64,000 nucleotides of DNA. It comes from an uncultured virus (IMG/VR IMGVR_UViG_3300031370_000004) (Duplodnaviria; Heunggongvirae; Uroviricota; Caudoviricetes). Location: positions 1 to 64,000 of the IMG/VR virus record IMGVR_UViG_3300031370_000004; one strand, given 5' to 3'. Within the stretch, counting starts at the first letter, position 1, and every line of letters starts with the position of its first letter. Positions 2,607 through 56,088 of the stretch are shown here, in pieces. The position numbers and the translations under genes are program-made. The notes beneath the pieces were generated by a model that was given only the letters and a program-made list of their open reading frames with translations, had not been told where the DNA came from and made no database searches.

Positions 2607-2607
2607 T

Positions 2608-3234
2608 ATGTCTTTAGTTTCTAGAAATGGGAAAAGTTATGCCTCCCTTGATTTCTCTCAAATAACGGAGAAAGGGCTTAAGCCCCTTATTGATGCGTTA
2701 AACCGAAATAACGTTACCGTAATTCAAACCTCTGCCAGCAATAAGGCAACGCGGAAAGATTCGATTCAGGTAAAGCAGGCAACAATCACGCTTCAGGATG
2801 GGCAGGAGTTACTTTTCCAGATCAACGATACCGGCGATATTTCAATGGTGAAGCTAAACGGGAAAGTCATTCCGGTACACATTGGTGAGAGCATTGCTGA
2901 TGTAGCCCGTTCAGCTGGCACCGCCGCAGCCCGGAACTCCAAAAAATTCACCGATGCTTTGGCGGCTAAAGCCAAAAGAGCCATCAGTGCTGACCTCAAT
3001 AAAAAAGCTTCTGTTAAATCAACTGCACAGCAAATACAGGAAGTGAAAGGCCAGTTAGCAGATAAAAAAACGTCAAACATAGCTCTTGAAGAGCAAATTA
3101 AAGGCGTGTCTTCGCAAAAAGACAAATTATCAGCACGAATAGAGCAAGCTAAAACGGAATTAGCTCAGGAGAAATCAACGGGCACGCAGCTTGAGATGCA
3201 ATTAAAAGAACTGGAGAAAACGCTTAATGTTTAA
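2608..3234 (+). CDS. hdf: Hdf-like (DarA N-terminal-like domain) antirestriction/head component
   Basis: LQDGQELLFQINDTGDISMVKLNGKVIP motif and C-terminal coiled coil. Lies between lydB and darA. Confidence 0.75.
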   Translation: MSLVSRNGKSYASLDFSQITEKGLKPLIDALNRNNVTVIQTSASNKATRKDSIQVKQATITLQDGQELLFQINDTGDISMVKLNGKVIPVHIGESIADVARSAGTAAARNSKKFTDALAAKAKRAISADLNKKASVKSTAQQIQEVKGQLADKKTSNIALEEQIKGVSSQKDKLSARIEQAKTELAQEKSTGTQLEMQLKELEKTLNV

Positions 3235-5206
3235 TAGTGAGCTTATTAATCGTGATTGCGCTATTCGCATAGTTAATTTCCACGATCATTCACCGCGGCA
3301 GCTTACTCCCGATACTGTCGAAGCGTTGCTGGAGAGTAATAGCATTCTGGAAAAGATCACTATTCAGGATCTGGAAAAATCCAGCTTTGGCAGTTATTCG
3401 TCTGATGAAAGTGAAGCGCTGCTTGAAGCCATCTCGACAACACGTAATCGCATCGCGCAAACCATGCGCGCGTTTATACGGGCGCTCAATCAGAAAATGG
3501 GCGGTACCGGCATCACCGCTGGAGATGACACTGCTGGCAGCGCAGATGACGGTACGAAAACGTTAGGCGGGGCCAGTATCGGGCGGGTTCGTCGTGTTGC
3601 CGGCTTTGCTGTTATGCCTGCGATGATCTCTCTTAGTGACGGGCAAGTGGTTACCGTAATGTTCCATAGCCCATCCGGGGATCAAGACAAAATACTCCCC
3701 GGTGATGTCCTGGTCGCGTTCCAGTTTTTGTTAAATAAAAAGGACGTCACTCACGTTGTCGCGCCCATGGGCGGGCGCGATATGTCATTGGCACAGGTCA
3801 CGATGACGTTGTCGAACATCATCGAGCGCAACACGCAAAAATTCCAGCGGAACCAGAAACGTCAGCAGCGCATGAAAGCCGATCTCGCTGAGGCCCAGCA
3901 GCAGTTTGAGGCAGAGAATGAGCAGGAGCTGGCGCTACAAAGTTCTCTCGGGGAAGGGAAAGGGCAGGCGACCAACCTGGAGATCAGCCTTAACAGCCTG
4001 CAGGTGGATATTGAGCATCAGCAGGACTACAACGCGGAACTTCGTACCCGTATTGCGGAAATGAGTGAACAAATAAAAACACGCTCAGGCGGAAATGGCG
4101 GCGGGAACGTTGGCGATAATAGCAGCGCAGAAGGCCCAGCAGCTACAGTACAGCTGTCGGACATACAGACCGGCGCAATGTGGCCAACATTAAAAAAAGC
4201 CTCCGTAAGCGGTGCTAACGCTATCTGGTACACGCAATCGAATGAATTCGACATCAAAGCATCTGCCAAAATCTCCATCAACGGCGCAGCGCCCGGGGAG
4301 GCTGCCAAAAAATTATATGCGCAATATCAGGCAGCGCGCGATGCCGGTTACTCGTTCACGTATTTCCGCATTTCGGGGCTACAGGGTATTTACGTTTTCG
4401 TCAAAGATAACGAAGTGCTCACAAAGGCTGGTGCCATGGCGCTGGTGAAACCAGACGGAGATGCCGGGGCGTCTGATGTTGTGACTCCGCCACCAGCTGC
4501 TGATACCGATACTGCCAATGCCGGGAAATTCCGTTACGCGCTACGTAACCGTCCCGCCGGTATCGGCGCCGTGCCGCCAGGCCAGGCTGGATTGCTGCCA
4601 CGCCCTCCAGAAAGCGATCCGTATTATGAGTATGCCCGCCACGGAATTATTACTTATGACACCGCCTTAAGTGACGAGCAAATTTCTCAGTTTGAGCTGC
4701 TTTATCTGCCTCGAGTGGAGGAATACCCGCAGCTGGCCAAAAACTTTGCGGCTGACGCCCTGGGCACTTATGCGCAGCAATACATTGAGATGGCCGCAGA
4801 AGATCCTGACACGTTTGAAAAAACGGTACGCATTAAGTTCAGAAACAGCCTGCCGAATGTGGCCTATCCGCTGGGAGAGATGAAAGCCACGTTCCTGGCT
4901 GACGTAGTCGGGGCATTACAGGCAATGGTTCAGCCACCAGAAGAAGAAAACCCACCAGGCGGAGAGAGCGAGGCGGATAAAATGGCAAACCAGGCGATCG
5001 AGTATCTGAAGTCGGTAGTTGTGATGGCCTCCAGCGACATGCAGGAGATCCGGGCGGCGCGTGGCCATGTTCGTGAAGCTATCGCCACACTGCAGGCAGC
5101 AGGGCGATTTGATGAGAATGAAGAGCTCGTAAATCAGGCGGCACAGCGGCTATCTGATCTGCTGGTGGAAATCCAGCGCGCTGGCGCCGCGGGGGTAGCA
5201 GCATGA
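3227..5206 (+). CDS. darA: Defence-against-restriction protein DarA
   Basis: LSDGQVVTVMFHSP...FQFLLNKKDVTHVVAP N-terminal domain, coiled coil, FRYALRNRPAGIGAVP...RHGIITY C-terminal domain. Confidence 0.9.
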   Translation: MFNSELINRDCAIRIVNFHDHSPRQLTPDTVEALLESNSILEKITIQDLEKSSFGSYSSDESEALLEAISTTRNRIAQTMRAFIRALNQKMGGTGITAGDDTAGSADDGTKTLGGASIGRVRRVAGFAVMPAMISLSDGQVVTVMFHSPSGDQDKILPGDVLVAFQFLLNKKDVTHVVAPMGGRDMSLAQVTMTLSNIIERNTQKFQRNQKRQQRMKADLAEAQQQFEAENEQELALQSSLGEGKGQATNLEISLNSLQVDIEHQQDYNAELRTRIAEMSEQIKTRSGGNGGGNVGDNSSAEGPAATVQLSDIQTGAMWPTLKKASVSGANAIWYTQSNEFDIKASAKISINGAAPGEAAKKLYAQYQAARDAGYSFTYFRISGLQGIYVFVKDNEVLTKAGAMALVKPDGDAGASDVVTPPPAADTDTANAGKFRYALRNRPAGIGAVPPGQAGLLPRPPESDPYYEYARHGIITYDTALSDEQISQFELLYLPRVEEYPQLAKNFAADALGTYAQQYIEMAAEDPDTFEKTVRIKFRNSLPNVAYPLGEMKATFLADVVGALQAMVQPPEEENPPGGESEADKMANQAIEYLKSVVVMASSDMQEIRAARGHVREAIATLQAAGRFDENEELVNQAAQRLSDLLVEIQRAGAAGVAA

Positions 5207-9875: not shown

Positions 9876-10023
9876 CGTGGAGCCTCCTGCAGGATATGGT
9901 CTGGAGGTTATAAAAGATTAGTGTTTATTGCAAAGAAAAGGCGCTTGCGCGCCTTATAACCACAATGAGTAAGTGAGTGCATTTCTGCGATCCCAATCTA
10001 ATCGATGTATGGCAGGAGTGAAA

Positions 10024-49828: not shown

Positions 49829-51311
49829 GGTAATCAAATCGGCAGTAACAGATCCGCGCTGGCTGGATATGGTGGTGAAGTACCGTTACGACTGGGTGAC
49901 GGCCATTGAAGTGCTCTTCGGTCGCGAGCTGACCTGGCAGCAGATGCTGGTGGTCCAGGAGGCGCAGGAAACGGGTAACTGGGTATCGGTTACATCCGGG
50001 CACGGTACCGGGAAATCTGACGTCACCGGCGCCATGATCCTCTGTTTCCAGATGTTCTACCCGGGCGCCCGTACCATCATCGTGGCCAACAAAATAAAAC
50101 AGGTCATGACCGGCGTTTTCAAATACATGAAAATGCACTGGGCAACAGCCTGCAAGCGCTTTCCATGGCTCGCTGAATACTTTGTACTGACAGATACCTG
50201 CTTTTACGAGATCACCAACAAAGGTGTCTGGGAAGTGGTGCCGAAGGGTTTCCGCCTGGGCAACGAAGAAGCACTAGCCGGTGAGCACGCAGAGCACCTG
50301 TGGTATATCGTCGATGAGGCCTCCGGCGTCAGCGATAAGGCATTTGGTATCATTGAGGGGGCGCTGACGCAGGAAGATAACCGGCTGATGCTGATCTCCC
50401 AGCCGACGCGTCCGAGCGGGCGCTTTTACGATTCGCATCACAGCCTGGCGAAAGGCCCGCACAACCCGAAAGGGCTGTTTACCTCGATCATGCTGAATTC
50501 TGAGGAATCGCCACTGGTCACCCTGAAGGCGATCCGGCAGTTCCTGGCAAAATACGGCGGGCGTAATAACCCGGAATATCAGATTAAGGTGCTGGGGCGG
50601 TTCCCCAAAACCACCAGCGATTATCTACTGGGGCGAGATGAATGCGAGAGCGCCCAGAGGCGCAAGGTACTGCTCCCGAAAGGCTGGGGCTGGGTGGCCT
50701 GCTGCGACGTGGGGAACGGGCGAGACAAGTCCATATTAAGTATTTTCCGGGTGAGCGGCAGCGGCCTGACGCGGCGAGTTGTGCCTTATAAGGTATACGA
50801 AATGGATACCACGATCACGCCGACGAAGTTCGCTGACTTCATTTACGCTAAATGTGACCCTTCTGTATTCCCGAACATCACGATAGTAGTCGATGGTGAC
50901 GGCGTCGGCTCTGCAACAGCTGACAAACTCTATGAGAATTACGGGATCGACGTGCAGCGCATTCGCTGGGGCTTCCCAATGCACAGCAGAAGCGACCGCA
51001 AGCGCTTTGTGAACCAGCGTGCCTACGCGAACATCATGGCGCAGTTCGCCATTCGCCAGGGAAGGATGCGCCTTGACCGGGATGATAAAACGGTCGAGCA
51101 GGCATCGAAGATCCCAATCCTGCTGAATGAGCACGGGCAATGGCTGGTTATGAAGAAAGAAGTGATGCGGCAGAAGCTAAACATCAAGTCGCCGGACCGG
51201 TGGGATACATATTGCTTTGCCATGCTGGCAAACTACGTTCCGGCGAATGAGGTTCTTAGTCAGGATGGCATGCATGAAAGGGACGAAGCGCTGGCGCTGC
51301 TGGCGAGTTAA
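49818..51311 (+). CDS. pacB: Terminase large subunit PacB
   Basis: SGHGTGKS Walker A, IVDEASG Walker B, nuclease DVGNG and SPDRWD. Confidence 0.95.
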
Positions 51312-52144
51312 CTCCCTTCTCGCTTTGATGATGCGGTGCCTGCAACGGCATCCTTCATCATGCGCTTCTGTCGGCTCTTTCGTTCTGATGCTGCTCTTAA
51401 CTGGCGTTTATTTTTTTCACGATATTCCGCCAGGCGATCGCGAACCTTTTCCACCTCTTCGACCAGATACAGCTTCGTGTCTGGCCACATCGCCGTTGGT
51501 ATGCCCTCAATCATGTCATAAGGGCTGGTGGATTCGCGCTCACGCGTGGGTTTCGTAGAAAGTCTCAGCTGGTCGTTATTCACGATAAACAACCCATGGG
51601 AAGAGACGCGCTCCAGCTCCAGCTCGGTGCTGCCCTCATAAGCGATATTGGCGATCGTATCTTTGAACCCCTCACGGCGCATATACATCCGCGCATCGCC
51701 CGGGAAAGTTGATAGCAACTCAATTTCCTTATGCAGCTGCGCACACAGCTCATCGCATTCAGGCTTTGCCCGCGACCGGCGGATCTTCGCCTGCATGGCC
51801 TCAATCACTTTCGATACCGGCCAGTTACGAACGGTAACCGCATCAAGCTCGTACACACGCACTCGCGTGGCACCAGCGATCATTTTTGGATAGGGCTTAA
51901 ATACCTGAGGTGGAATATGCAGATCGGGGAACTCTTCCAGCTTCTCTGCGTAATCAACCCATTTTTGAATTTTGGCGCTGTATGTAGAATGCTCGTCCGG
52001 CTGCAACAGCACAACAGGGCGAAAAACTTCGCCGTACCGGCTTGTAATTTTATATTCAGCTCGATGAAGTGCCTCATCAAGGAATTCCCTTCGAAAGGTC
52101 ATGAATTCCAGATACAGGCGTTCCGCGAGGTTGTAGTCAGTCAT
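51308..52144 (-). CDS. c1: Primary repressor, C1-like
   Basis: [34 protein letters not shown] and WPDTKLY match recalled P1 C1. Convergent with pacB as in P1. Confidence 0.88.
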
Positions 52145-52307
52145 GTTTTTTCTACCCTGCATGAAGAACGGTATGTAAGTGAGCGATGACAATGTATAAA
52201 AAATATAGTGTTTTTTAAAGCAGTGCACGCCCTTTCAGGGGAGAAAGAGTAAAAAAAGCGCGATCGACCTCGCAGAAAAGTAAGCCGCGCCTAACTGGGG
52301 GGAGAGA

Positions 52308-53299: not shown

Positions 53300-53619
53300 T
53301 TTATATCCTTAATAATTGCCGCAATGATTAACGACACATTACCCCAGATGCGCGTACGTGAAAATTAGAATTTTTCGGGGGCTCTTCTACGCCAGAATTC
53401 ACGTAGCGCACCAAAAAACACGAGCGTAATACGGGAAAAATTTATTACCGCCGCGCGACCGCATACAAAAAACCGCTGAAGTCCCGGCTCAACTGGCCCT
53501 GGCGCTTTCGGCATCATGATGTTTTCAGGCTGGTGGCCCGCTGTTGGGTAAAAACCGCAAAACGAGTTGTTGACTCACAGATCGTCAACGGTGTAGATTC
53601 AATAAACACTAAACATTTA

Positions 53620-54850
53620 GTTACAGCCACAACCCTTCCGAGGGTGCAACAGAAAAGCGCGTTTGGTCTGAAAAGTTAAGCGCCCTTTTCGTTGTAGCGC
53701 GGTGGCTCCTACGCTTCAGCCGGGTGACGTTTCCCGATAGCCGTCTGCGTCCACTGCAATAGTGTGGGCGCACCCGTAAGGCCATTGGATTTTCGGTAAA
53801 GGCATTTTCACCGCCAGCGCCGAACGACAGCGTGTTGGGCATGCATGCGCCAGTGGCCTTTCGGGTGTGAGTAAAAGTTCACGGTGCAAACGTGACGCAA
53901 GACTGGCGAGATTGCTTTTTCCTCTGAGGACGCCAGCGGCCAGGTTGACCAGTCGCCTGAGTGGCCGCGCCGGGTAAGCACCGGCAACTGCAGGACATTG
54001 CGGCTTCTTTGAGAAGCGCCGGACGCGTAACCGGCTGAAATAAAAACTGAGGTGACAGCTGGAGAGACAGCACCACAACCAAAGAGCGCGGGCGTGAAAA
54101 ACTGTACCTACAGGCGGCGGAATTACGGTTCCCGGCCAAGCCGCATAGCTGAGGGGATCGCTCTTTTTGATTGTGGTGAATGCACAGGCTGATGTGCAGC
54201 GGACTTTTAATCCGTGCGGGTACTGGCACAACCAGTCCGAAAGCCGGAGATCGGCACCGGCCACCACAAGCAGTAAAGCCCAGACGATATCTGAGTGGCT
54301 TAAAAAACAGATGGGAGCTGGTGGAAACCCAGCACACAACGGAGTGAATCATTCTTGCCTCTGGTCCGGTTTCGCGACTGGTGGGGGCGGGTAGCCACAC
54401 AAGCCGCAGCGCGAAGCGGCCCGAGTGGAGTTAAGCGCGGGGAACCTTATCGGGGAAGTGAAACCCTGGGGGGATGATTCACCCCGTTGTGGAGAATTGC
54501 AGTTGAAAAGACAACCAGAAGATCAGCATCTGGCCCATAACCACCTGTCACCCACTTCACTGGGTGTCGCCGGACGAAAGTAACCGGCAAAGCCCATTGC
54601 TATTATCACCAAAACTTCCATGAATTGCTGTGTGTAGACGTTGCCCATCCCGTGATGGGCTTTTTTTCTGAATATTTTGAGCTCTGAGCAGTAGCTCCCT
54701 GACAACGGAGCGCACAACCGAAAGCCCGGTCGCGACAAGGTTTTCGGTTGTGGTAATGCACCTAGCGGATGTGACGTTTGATGATGTATTGAAAGAGTGG
54801 ACAGACGTCGGGGCTTGCCCCAGGTGGAGGCACCACCGCCACAACATAAC
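53620..54850 (+). ncRNA. Long structured non-coding RNA region with repeated tRNA-like modules
   Basis: No credible ORF. Promoter TTGACT(53570)-N18-TAGATT with an operator over the start. Four 14-20 bp long-range stems, three cloverleaf-like elements and many 5-bp T-arm-like hairpins. Confidence 0.7.
54643..54667 (+). terminator. Internal rho-independent terminator
   Basis: GCCCATC-CCGT-GATGGGC followed by T7. Confidence 0.75.
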
Positions 54851-54931
54851 CACAGGCACGATCGATAAACGGTGTCCTGGCGTTTAATGCCAATTCACGC
54901 AAAGGCAGACGAACTGCCAGAAGGTGAGCCA

Positions 54932-55132
54932 ATGAGTTATTCACGTTGTACCTACTGCGGCTCAACGCTGCACACCGTAGCGAATTGCCCAAAAACATGG
55001 GGAGGTTCAGCCCGCCGTGCGAACCTGCGCTGCGGTTACTGCGGCAAGTCTGGCCACAATTCTAATGCCTGCCCGTCTAATGCAAGCAGCGGGAACCGTC
55101 GTCGTCTGAATGATGATTACTATCTCGATTAA
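54932..55132 (+). CDS. Double CCHC zinc-knuckle protein
   Basis: CTYCGSTLHTVANC and CGYCGKSGHNSNAC (CX2CX4HX4C twice). Confidence 0.85.
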   Translation: MSYSRCTYCGSTLHTVANCPKTWGGSARRANLRCGYCGKSGHNSNACPSNASSGNRRRLNDDYYLD

Positions 55133-55143
55133 GGGTCATAACT

Positions 55144-55437
55144 ATGAGTGAAGCAATTCCCCAAGATGGCAGCACCGTCAAAGGCTACCGCACGTTAACA
55201 CCAGGCGACATTGAGCGCATGAACCGCCTGAAGGACGTTAGTCGTCACTTTTGCAGTCTTCTCGATACCGAGCGCGAGGAGCTGATGGCTGCACGCAATG
55301 GCCCAGCACTGTTAAGCACAGAGCAGGCGCGCGAGATTGATGACGCCCTGCGCTGCCTGTCGGTCGCACGCACAAAAATGCAGGAAGCCTGTATGTGGGG
55401 CTGTCGTGCTATTGCGCGGCCTGACGCTGATTGTTAG
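55144..55437 (+). CDS. acb2: Acb2-like cyclic-nucleotide sponge (anti-CBASS)
   Basis: KGYRTL...ERMNRLK...ARTKMQEACMWGCRAIARP matches the Acb2 family pattern. Confidence 0.8.
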   Translation: MSEAIPQDGSTVKGYRTLTPGDIERMNRLKDVSRHFCSLLDTEREELMAARNGPALLSTEQAREIDDALRCLSVARTKMQEACMWGCRAIARPDADC

Positions 55438-55955: not shown

Positions 55956-56031
55956 GGCCCCTTAACTCAGCGGTGAGAGTAAGCCCCTCATAAGGGCCGA
56001 GTCGCCGGTTCGAATCCGGCAGGGGCCACCA
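55956..56031 (+). tRNA. trnI: tRNA with CAT anticodon, Ile2 (lysidine) type
   Basis: GGCCCCT/AGGGGCC acceptor stem as in ileX, loop CTCATAA, TTCGAAT T-loop, encoded CCA. Confidence 0.92.
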
Positions 56032-56060
56032 TTTCACGTATGTTTTCAACGCCTATATTT

Positions 56061-56088
56061 AAGGCCACCTTCGCCGGTGGCCTTTTTG
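56061..56088 (+). terminator. Rho-independent terminator closing the island
   Basis: AAGGCCACC-N6-GGTGGCCTT followed by T residues. Confidence 0.8.

Follow-up and report, generated by a model that had tools for sequence, protein, structure and literature searches.

STnc100 and PasD are Hfq-dependent small RNAs carried by the lambdoid prophages of Salmonella and of pathogenic Escherichia coli, and RprA is an Rcs-controlled, Hfq-dependent small RNA (sRNA) of enterobacteria; a terminator hairpin followed by a U-tail is the usual Hfq-binding end. Phages P1 and P7 encode C4, a tRNA-like RNA with antisense loops that is a substrate of RNase P. Plasmids of the P1/D6 type have a tRNA-Asn/tRNA-Thr region after pmgS, and the leader of the P1 ban operon is C1-controlled. 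Here we analysed an array of structured non-coding modules at 53.6–54.85 kb of an uncultured caudovirus (IMG/VR record IMGVR_UViG_3300031370_000004), within a 64-kb window (the whole stretch analysed, 64,000 nt) that forms part of a 90.4-kb record with terminal repeats, and compared it with these RNAs. Judged by its gene content, which in the window includes a ParM-type partition protein, a PacA/PacB-like terminase, a c1-like gene, a Cre-like integrase, Ref, and tail genes, the source is a P1/D6-like phage-plasmid.

According to the respective reports, PasD1 and PasD2 were found by Hfq RIL-seq (sequencing of RNA partners joined by ligation) in enteropathogenic E. coli (EPEC), were confirmed by Northern blot as Hfq-dependent, and have RIL-seq partners (PMC8550237); PasD is structurally related to STnc100, the function of both being described in 2026 as not elucidated (preprint, bioRxiv 10.64898/2026.05.13.724894); and a 2025 paper located STnc100 in vesicles as well as downstream of stx2 and made no functional tests (PMC12370729). 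The literature searched on these themes held neither a tRNA-like reading nor an array context for STnc100/PasD.

Conserved structured modules on the plus strand

The modules of the array are real, conserved and structured, on the plus strand. At least nine different modules make up the chain, and each of them also occurs separately in other phages; the groups that carry them are P1/D6-like plasmids, lambdoid Klebsiella and E. coli phages, N4-like phages, and Acinetobacter phages. BLAST of positions 53500–54950 matched pieces of 55–165 nt in 84 phage and 105 plasmid records, and no record reached ≥80% coverage. Three of the modules, unit A (type 1, 54170–54270), unit B (type 3, 54486–54541) and unit C (type 2, 54747–54845), have three features in common: a closing stem of the type GTTGTGG...CCACAAC, the linker AAT(T)GC, and, next to the 3′ closing strand, a terminal hairpin of 5 bp, whose loops are AGATCGGCA, AGATCAGCA and AGGCA. 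A first-pass annotation, made from the sequence alone, had described three such cloverleaf-like units with a shared closing stem, linker and terminal hairpin, together with four long stems; the units were recovered as described, and an inverted-repeat scan returned the stems at 85–94% complementarity. The locus had also been called a repeating architecture. It is modular and non-coding, but it is built of different modules, not of one repeated unit. Likewise, the covarying stem below a conserved loop is seen among the units of the window, but this compares three unit types and not orthologues; covariation among collected homologues, which had been proposed as a check, is present for type 1, type 2 and the module Mc.

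The type 1 family comprises 43 distinct units from IMG/VR and phage records, which share their 5′ 29 nt and 3′ 30 nt around unalignable centres of 20–140 nt. The structure tested, consisting of the closing stem, a D-like stem, a T-like stem and a five-pair kiss between the D-loop and the T-loop, was paired in 95.1% of the cells, and nine pairs changed on both sides versus 1.7 in shuffles, with 0 of 500 shuffles as high; slid controls had just 25–55% of the cells paired. The kiss joins the D-like loop GCUGA to the T-like loop UCAGC by Watson–Crick pairing, and three of its pairs changed on both sides, with full compensation in two loci. The closing stem is without double changes because the search pattern fixed its 5′ strand.

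The type 2 family (27 units, unit C and 26 others) had 89% of its cells paired; 12 of 19 pairs changed on both sides, six of them in the closing stem, amounting to 46 cells versus 11.5 in shuffles (0 of 500 as high). Mc (54275–54336), represented by 71 distinct copies, was 98.9% paired, with six pairs and 43 cells changed on both sides versus 7.1 (again 0 of 500), and the invariance of its inner helix stems from the search pattern, which includes this helix. Pairing of the Mc motif ATCTG with a downstream CAGAT was left uncompensated in the variants CTGAT and CGGAT, the 5′ partner being fixed by the search pattern. Covariation was scored against shuffles ignoring kinship, and related sequences may beat shuffles without structure; this concern is largely met by the slid controls and by the number of independent pair types.

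G–U pairs are frequent in the pair tables of type 1, type 2 and Mc, and on the other strand these are C–A mismatches. True tRNA genes are co-stranded with the modules in D6, an Enterobacter plasmid (L002), phage Bp4 and an Acinetobacter phage (L006), and of 60 scanned Mc loci, seven have a tRNA within 700 nt, which is co-stranded with Mc in all seven. The annotation table of D6 puts the tRNA genes opposite to the strand given by ARAGORN and Rfam. The plus-strand folds of units A and C are multi-branch and cloverleaf-like (z −3.1 and −2.6); overall, thermodynamic z-scores were −1.4 to −4.9 on the plus strand and are not strand-discriminating, because the minus-strand values were similar.

Relationship to STnc100/PasD, RprA and tRNA

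Unit C is, by model comparison, a distant relative of the STnc100/PasD core. The Rfam STnc100 model aligns to a D6 unit over positions 31–147, and this part of the consensus has the scaffold of type 2, in which the closing stem and an AAU linker are followed by a first hairpin and by a hairpin with an AGGCA loop. Against a gathering score of 47, lambdoid-phage members scored 78.7, 62.1 and 55.3 bits and type-2 units 46.3–34.7 bits. STnc100 (RF02076) had no match to E 10 in 53300–55200, leaving unit C unscored, and its best score over the whole phage record was 16.4 bits, outside the array. A covariance model (R1) was made from 25 type-2-like units, with unit C and its D6 counterpart left out. 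On both strands of the whole window, R1 found two matches only, both on the plus strand: unit C, over its full length, at 41.2 bits (E 2.8e-7) and unit A at 25.7 bits (E 7.8e-4), and it missed unit B. Units A and C are thus diverged members of a scaffold superfamily that includes STnc100. Unit C resembles STnc100/PasD in the 7–9-bp closing stem, the AAU linker, the first hairpin and the 5-bp AGGCA-loop hairpin, and both are phage-borne; unlike STnc100, it gets no score from the Rfam model, lacks a terminator tail of its own, and is one link in a chain of other modules that follows a P1-type operator. Further variants are unit A, with a 9-nt loop and a loop–loop kiss, and unit B, a mini form.

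The segment at 54568–54670 (plus strand) is an RprA-like small RNA in which a 5′ hairpin precedes the seed GAAUUGCUGUGUGUAG and an intrinsic terminator comes last. It scored 46.9 bits (E 3e-4, model positions 1–108) with the RprA model RF00034, below the gathering score of 70; the 16-nt seed is identical to that of RprA with high posterior probability, and the terminator at 54643–54660 follows. The two RNAs thus share seed and terminator, whereas their 5′ halves are unrelated and the array copy is phage-borne. An RprA-like seed with several different terminator stems follows units in 87 of 458 loci, which is not a frequency, because the loci were chosen for carrying modules. A contig of run X23, another metagenome, joins the terminal hairpin and closing strand of unit C (54821–54848) to the seed/terminator (54622–54649), and the Enterobacter plasmid L002 has at 4190–4375 a type-2 unit and then an RprA-like tail, as in that contig. 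In relatives, the type-2 unit and RprA-like tail therefore form one unit, and in this fusion to the 3′ end of a type-2 unit the relatives' RprA-like piece is unlike RprA.

The first-pass annotation recognised no described family. This stands in so far as nothing in the array reaches a gathering score, and fails in so far as unit C has the scaffold of the STnc100/PasD core and 54568–54670 is RprA-like; the Rfam scan proposed there returned at gathering scores tRNA-Met only, and to E 10 the region held sub-threshold RprA and noise only.

The tRNA-like outline claimed for the units is supported by covariation, including the type 1 D/T-loop pairing. Units A and C have a 7–9-bp closing stem, a 5-bp hairpin 0–1 nt before the 3′ strand, and a D-like hairpin after a 2–3-nt linker. 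ARAGORN and the Rfam tRNA model (RF00005, to E 10) rejected units A, B and C, whose loops AGAUCGGCA, AGAUCAGCA and AGGCA show no T-loop consensus; in type 1, the D/T contact is the GCUGA/UCAGC kiss in place of the T-loop/D-loop consensus. In the second hairpin of unit A, a 5-bp stem bears the 7-nt loop CUUUUAA, whose position 2 is U and whose position 6 is a purine. In minimum-energy folds such an anticodon-like second hairpin was present in three of the 43 type-1 units, unit A included; in L227, the nearest relative of unit A, the loop at this place is of 9 nt. On this count we rejected anticodon mimicry as a general feature of the family. We conclude that the scaffold is tRNA-shaped and that anticodon mimicry is not what the family conserves.

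The C4 antisense RNA (Rfam) had no gathering-score match in the window and none to E 10 in the region. A likeness to C4, compared by Rfam alone, is one of concept only: a phage regulatory RNA cut from a C1-controlled transcript by way of a tRNA-like domain.

The remaining modules of the chain

All modules named here lie on the plus strand. The first stem-closed hairpin, S0 (53647–53695), was read from the sequence; it has a CAAC/GTTG base and a terminator-like apical part (53659–53683). S1 (53771–53867) is a long hairpin cassette with 18-nt arms (53771–53788/53850–53867, 89% complementary) and a fold of −48.5 kcal/mol (z −4.9), and its stretch recurs in contigs from other runs. Four runs considered as possible RNA data consist of contigs, are probably DNA, contain scattered modules only, and carry no information on ends or strand. 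Ma (53878–53986) occurs in Enterobacter and Citrobacter P1-like plasmids at 83–89% identity (85% with L002 4001–4115), and its 3′ end is a 5-bp hairpin with a loop ending in GCA. Mb (54071–54178) is a stem-closed cassette with a conserved internal loop and 20-nt arms (54071–54090/54159–54178, 85%). It is present in five Acinetobacter phages at 82–85% identity, lies in L006 directly 3′ of tRNA-Arg, where the stem base is compensated in the one Acinetobacter copy read, and was found by pattern search in 13 distinct true copies among 93 distinct matches.

Unit A, a tRNA-shaped scaffold with a hypervariable centre, is followed by Mc, which has two hairpins, the second with a 7-nt loop, and the 3′ end CACACAAC. 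Mc has at least 120 exact IMG/VR matches and is present in most of the 84 matching phage records, including SopranoGao, lambdoid Klebsiella phages and N4-like Gamaleyaviruses, in the last of which it adjoins a tRNA-like gene. Md (54329–54493) is a long-stem-closed RNA of ~150 nt (arms 54335–54352/54474–54491, 18 nt, 94%) that is also carried by Enterobacter and Serratia plasmids, with 91.5% identity to an Enterobacter plasmid; its nine distinct variants show, by eye, a few compensatory changes. Unit B is a mini scaffold that has just a closing stem, a small hairpin and a T-like hairpin, with copies in D6, an Enterobacter plasmid and IMG/VR loci, between which the small-hairpin stem varies (by eye). 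Past the RprA-like segment, the short hairpin S4 (54713–54752; arms 54713–54732/54733–54752, 20 nt, 85%) has a CACAAC/GTTGTG base, and its 3′ strand doubles as the 5′ closing strand of unit C, which is found in D6 and ~90 D6-like plasmids.

Promoter, operator and terminator

A sigma-70-like promoter, TTGACT-18 nt-TAGATT (53570–53599, plus strand), matches the consensus at 9 of 12 positions. The region has four promoter-like sites versus 3.5 expected, no excess over chance, so that the promoter noted in the first-pass annotation is present as hexamers but is not above chance by itself. Its other claim, an operator over the promoter start, is well borne out: a 17-bp operator of a C1-type repressor regulon (53599–53615, plus strand) overlaps the −10 hexamer and the start site, and the 17-mer has 10 matches in the window with at most three mismatches versus 0.07 expected, a number reached in 0 of 100 shuffles. 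The operator-like word (CAATAAACACTAAAC core) stands at positions 9915, 12216, 15059, 23214, 24577, 26605, 29843, 30298, 52552 and 53599; one copy lies just 5′ of a 2291-aa DarB-like open reading frame (ORF) and another beside the c1-like gene. By its distribution, this set of ten copies is a dispersed P1-style repressor regulon with an operator sequence of its own.

A strong intrinsic terminator (54643–54660 and T run), absent from the first-pass annotation, splits the array in two and speaks against the single polycistronic precursor proposed there. The terminator scan found none between 54846 and the next gene, unit C being without a terminator of its own, and no further promoter was found for the genes 3′ of the internal terminator. 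Mechanical ORFs of the array have 207, 173 and 100 aa (minus strand) and 75 aa (plus strand). None of the six array ORFs tested had a Pfam match to E 0.1, and PHROGs gave three marginal matches (E 0.026–0.066), in agreement with the earlier statement that no ORF there is credible.

Arrays in relatives and their junctions

D6 and the Enterobacter plasmid carry units of types 1, 2 and 3, the RprA-like piece and Md interleaved with true tRNAs on one strand, in a gene-free region of ~2 kb past a pmgS-like gene. Unlike the D6 region, the array of the window has moved to the c1–cre interval, heads a small Acb2/Tad1 operon, and has no true tRNA inside. In the E. coli CH468 plasmid (L459), a 129-nt 'tRNA-Met' called by the NCBI annotation pipeline (1659–1787) starts at a GTTGTGG junction after Md; its D and T arms are canonical and flank an insert of ~50 nt, and the anti-Thoeris gene Tad2 (2607–3164) lies 0.8 kb downstream of it.

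GUUGUG(G) stands at the start of each unit and (C)CACAAC at its end, and in each spacer hairpin CACAAC comes first and GUUGUG last; with these common termini, one 3′ strand is able to close the upstream hairpin or the downstream unit. Some CACAAC-base hairpins precede a true tRNA or an ORF and have no later partner, so both pairings seem to be used. The junction may be processing punctuation, a folding switch or just recombination microhomology. Cassettes have been reassorted at these sites: among its nine variants, Md has at least four kinds of neighbour on the left and at least four on the right.

Possible roles of the array

We favour, tentatively and short of calling it probable, an early, repressor-controlled and processed multi-sRNA transcript, in which the scaffold provides processing and stability and the centres and the seed base-pair with other RNAs. 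When a C1-type repressor leaves 53599–53615, the plus strand would be transcribed from 53570–53599 and would fold co-transcriptionally into a chain in which the cassettes S0, S1, Ma, Mb, Md and S4 alternate with units A, B and C and with Mc. Most transcripts would stop at 54643–54667, giving an RprA-like 3′ sRNA with a single-stranded seed, a terminator hairpin and a U-tail. Host RNases may then release stable small RNAs from the chain: RNase P may cut acceptor-like stems at their 5′ edge, RNase III may cut the 18–20-bp stems, and RNase E with exonucleases may trim the 3′ trailers. The tRNA-like scaffold would act as processing signal and stabiliser, the type 1 kiss mimicking the tRNA elbow, and the hypervariable centre would be the working part, most likely pairing with host or phage RNAs by analogy with STnc100/PasD and the RprA-like seed.

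Several points weigh against this reading. For this array we infer transcription, processing, Hfq dependence and a base-pairing function. Unit C fails the Rfam STnc100 model and lacks a terminator such as STnc100/PasD have; as it is not elucidated what STnc100/PasD do, the analogy yields a mode of action and no target. Antisense and sense 12-mers to the phage genome numbered 17 versus a shuffle mean of 13.9 and maximum of 24, operator repeats removed. The internal terminator lies upstream of unit C and of the downstream genes. The GUUGUG strand can pair upstream in a hairpin cassette or downstream in a unit, giving two alternative folds, and the scaffold could be the sole functional part, in which case the hypervariable centres would be neutral filler.

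Should the modules be processed stable RNAs, many temperate phages and phage-plasmids would devote 1–2 kb of their earliest transcript to shuffled structured RNAs, of which STnc100/PasD would be the sole named type. The combination of tRNA-like scaffold and hypervariable centre suggests a natural RNA display scaffold and offers a handle on STnc100/PasD-type RNAs. With Acb2/Tad1 as a neighbour here and Tad2 in a relative, a role in host takeover or counter-defence lends itself to a direct test by deletion and plating.

The units might instead be tRNA-mimic decoys that bait or inhibit defences cutting or sensing tRNAs or structured RNAs early in infection, a reading we consider unlikely. Their tRNA-like outline, with a covarying elbow-like loop–loop contact, would suit such a role, as would the class-II-like cloverleaf of unit A with its 5-bp second-hairpin stem and 7-nt loop CUUUUAA. 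So would the anti-defence neighbours (Acb2/Tad1 here, Tad2 in the E. coli plasmid with an Md cassette), the position of arrays amid true tRNA genes (D6, Bp4, an Acinetobacter phage), and the sister unit with the same acceptor-like start that the NCBI pipeline annotated as a 129-nt 'tRNA-Met'; hypervariable centres would fit an arms race. However, the anticodon-like second hairpin is confined to 3/43 type-1 units and the L227 loop is 9 nt long, units A–C were rejected by ARAGORN and by Rfam tRNA, the T-like loops (AGGCA, AGAUCRGCA) are no T-loops, and CCA is not encoded. A tRNA lies within 700 nt at just 7/60 Mc loci. The characterised relatives, moreover, are Hfq-bound RNAs with mRNA partners (PMC8550237).

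We are equally doubtful of a cis-acting leader, in which the chain would serve the downstream operon through terminator read-through, processing sites or 5′-end stabilisation. Here as in lambdoid phages, the array separates a repressor-controlled promoter from the first genes; the order in L227 is promoter, array with RprA-like terminator, first ORF, with L099 and L101 similar, and in a Klebsiella phage Mc lies between a regulator gene and an exonuclease gene. A strong terminator 5′ of the genes, with no other promoter found, would also agree with a leader. Yet modules occur after the lysis genes at the genome end of SopranoGao, where there is no downstream operon, and inside tRNA clusters, and an RprA-like seed kept with varying terminators resembles a trans-acting sRNA. 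The phage known for RNA-based antitermination is HK022, and its right 20.7 kb held none of eight module motifs bar one chance GTTGTGG; this speaks against a leader only as a motif scan, which is no test of put-like function. A putative likeness of the spacer stems' 3′ strands to NusB/E boxA, and of the small hairpins with GAAAGA loops to boxB, carries no weight here.

More broadly, the modules might constitute a widespread system of exchangeable RNA cassettes, in which kiss-elbow tRNA-shaped scaffolds display a hypervariable cargo and share a universal CACAAC/GUUGUG junction, the cargo being a fast-evolving repertoire against host defences or regulators that is expressed first after derepression; we think this improbable as it stands. 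Under such a system the junction may be at once acceptor-like stem, base of the spacer hairpins, RNase punctuation and microhomology for shuffling between unrelated phages, from Acinetobacter to enterobacterial ones.

Elements acting as DNA or decaying (recombination sites, single-stranded DNA hairpins, mobile mini-cassettes or eroded tRNA genes) and without RNA function are very unlikely: the cassettes are shuffled, with at least four left and at least four right neighbours of Md among nine variants, a contig of another run joins the 3′ end of unit C straight to the RprA-like seed, and the common CACAAC/GTTGTG junction offers possible recombination microhomology, but helices are kept by compensatory changes, strand-specific G–U pairs are frequent, orientation is constant relative to tRNA genes and terminators, the relatives are proven RNAs (PMC8550237), and shuffling at common junctions is compatible with RNA function.

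Neighbouring genes and further observations

The array lies between the c1-like gene (51308–52228, minus strand, phrog_1678) and the integrase. On its 3′ side follow, in order, a zinc-knuckle protein, an Acb2/Tad1-domain protein, a crAss001_48-related protein, tRNA-Met and a terminator. The first gene past the array (54932–55132, plus strand) has a Shine–Dalgarno sequence and a likely start at ATG 54932, and encodes a small protein of 66 aa with two CX2CX4HX4C zinc knuckles. These knuckles are of the retrovirus type, and the protein has 159 relatives among IMG/VR phages; its Pfam matches were sub-threshold only (zf-CCHC, 19.9 bits, cut-off 20.8). The array was found upstream of this gene in just two near-identical copies (L009, L010) among 80 related loci, and the protein and the array are therefore not co-travelling.

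The next gene (55144–55437, plus strand) encodes an Acb2/Tad1 hairpin-domain protein of the anti-CBASS/anti-Thoeris sponge family (PF24729, 63.4 bits, cut-off 27). The array had been placed at the head of an anti-defence operon, and this holds in the sense of one anti-defence domain gene downstream. The operon ends with tRNA-Met(CAT) and an intrinsic terminator (55956–56084, plus strand; terminator 56061–56084). The tRNA-Met gene proper (55956–56031; RF00005, 62.2 bits) is the sole tRNA called by Rfam and ARAGORN, 1.1 kb 3′ of the array.

Further structured elements were noticed in relatives. The arrays of D6 (L001 ~4390–4435) and Bp4 (L003 ~1290–1330) contain a short frame resembling a tmRNA degradation tag, which starts with AND and ends with AA-stop; the Rfam permuted-tmRNA model scored a weak 24.1 and 33.4 bits there versus a gathering score of 47, and ARAGORN called no tmRNA. 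In vB_AbaSI_2 (L006), a hammerhead-like core (1687–1734) lies ~180 nt 5′ of tRNA-Arg and Mb, and scored 22.5 bits with Hammerhead_HH9, gathering score 52. A pseudoknot-like element of ~35 nt (ACCAC..GTGGT and GCCTG..CAGGC interleaved), absent from the window, opens lambdoid arrays right after the divergent gene start; it has 14 occurrences in 12 distinct contexts, at the loci L090, L108, L109, L111, L116, L121, L122, L177, L192, L207, L226 and L227.

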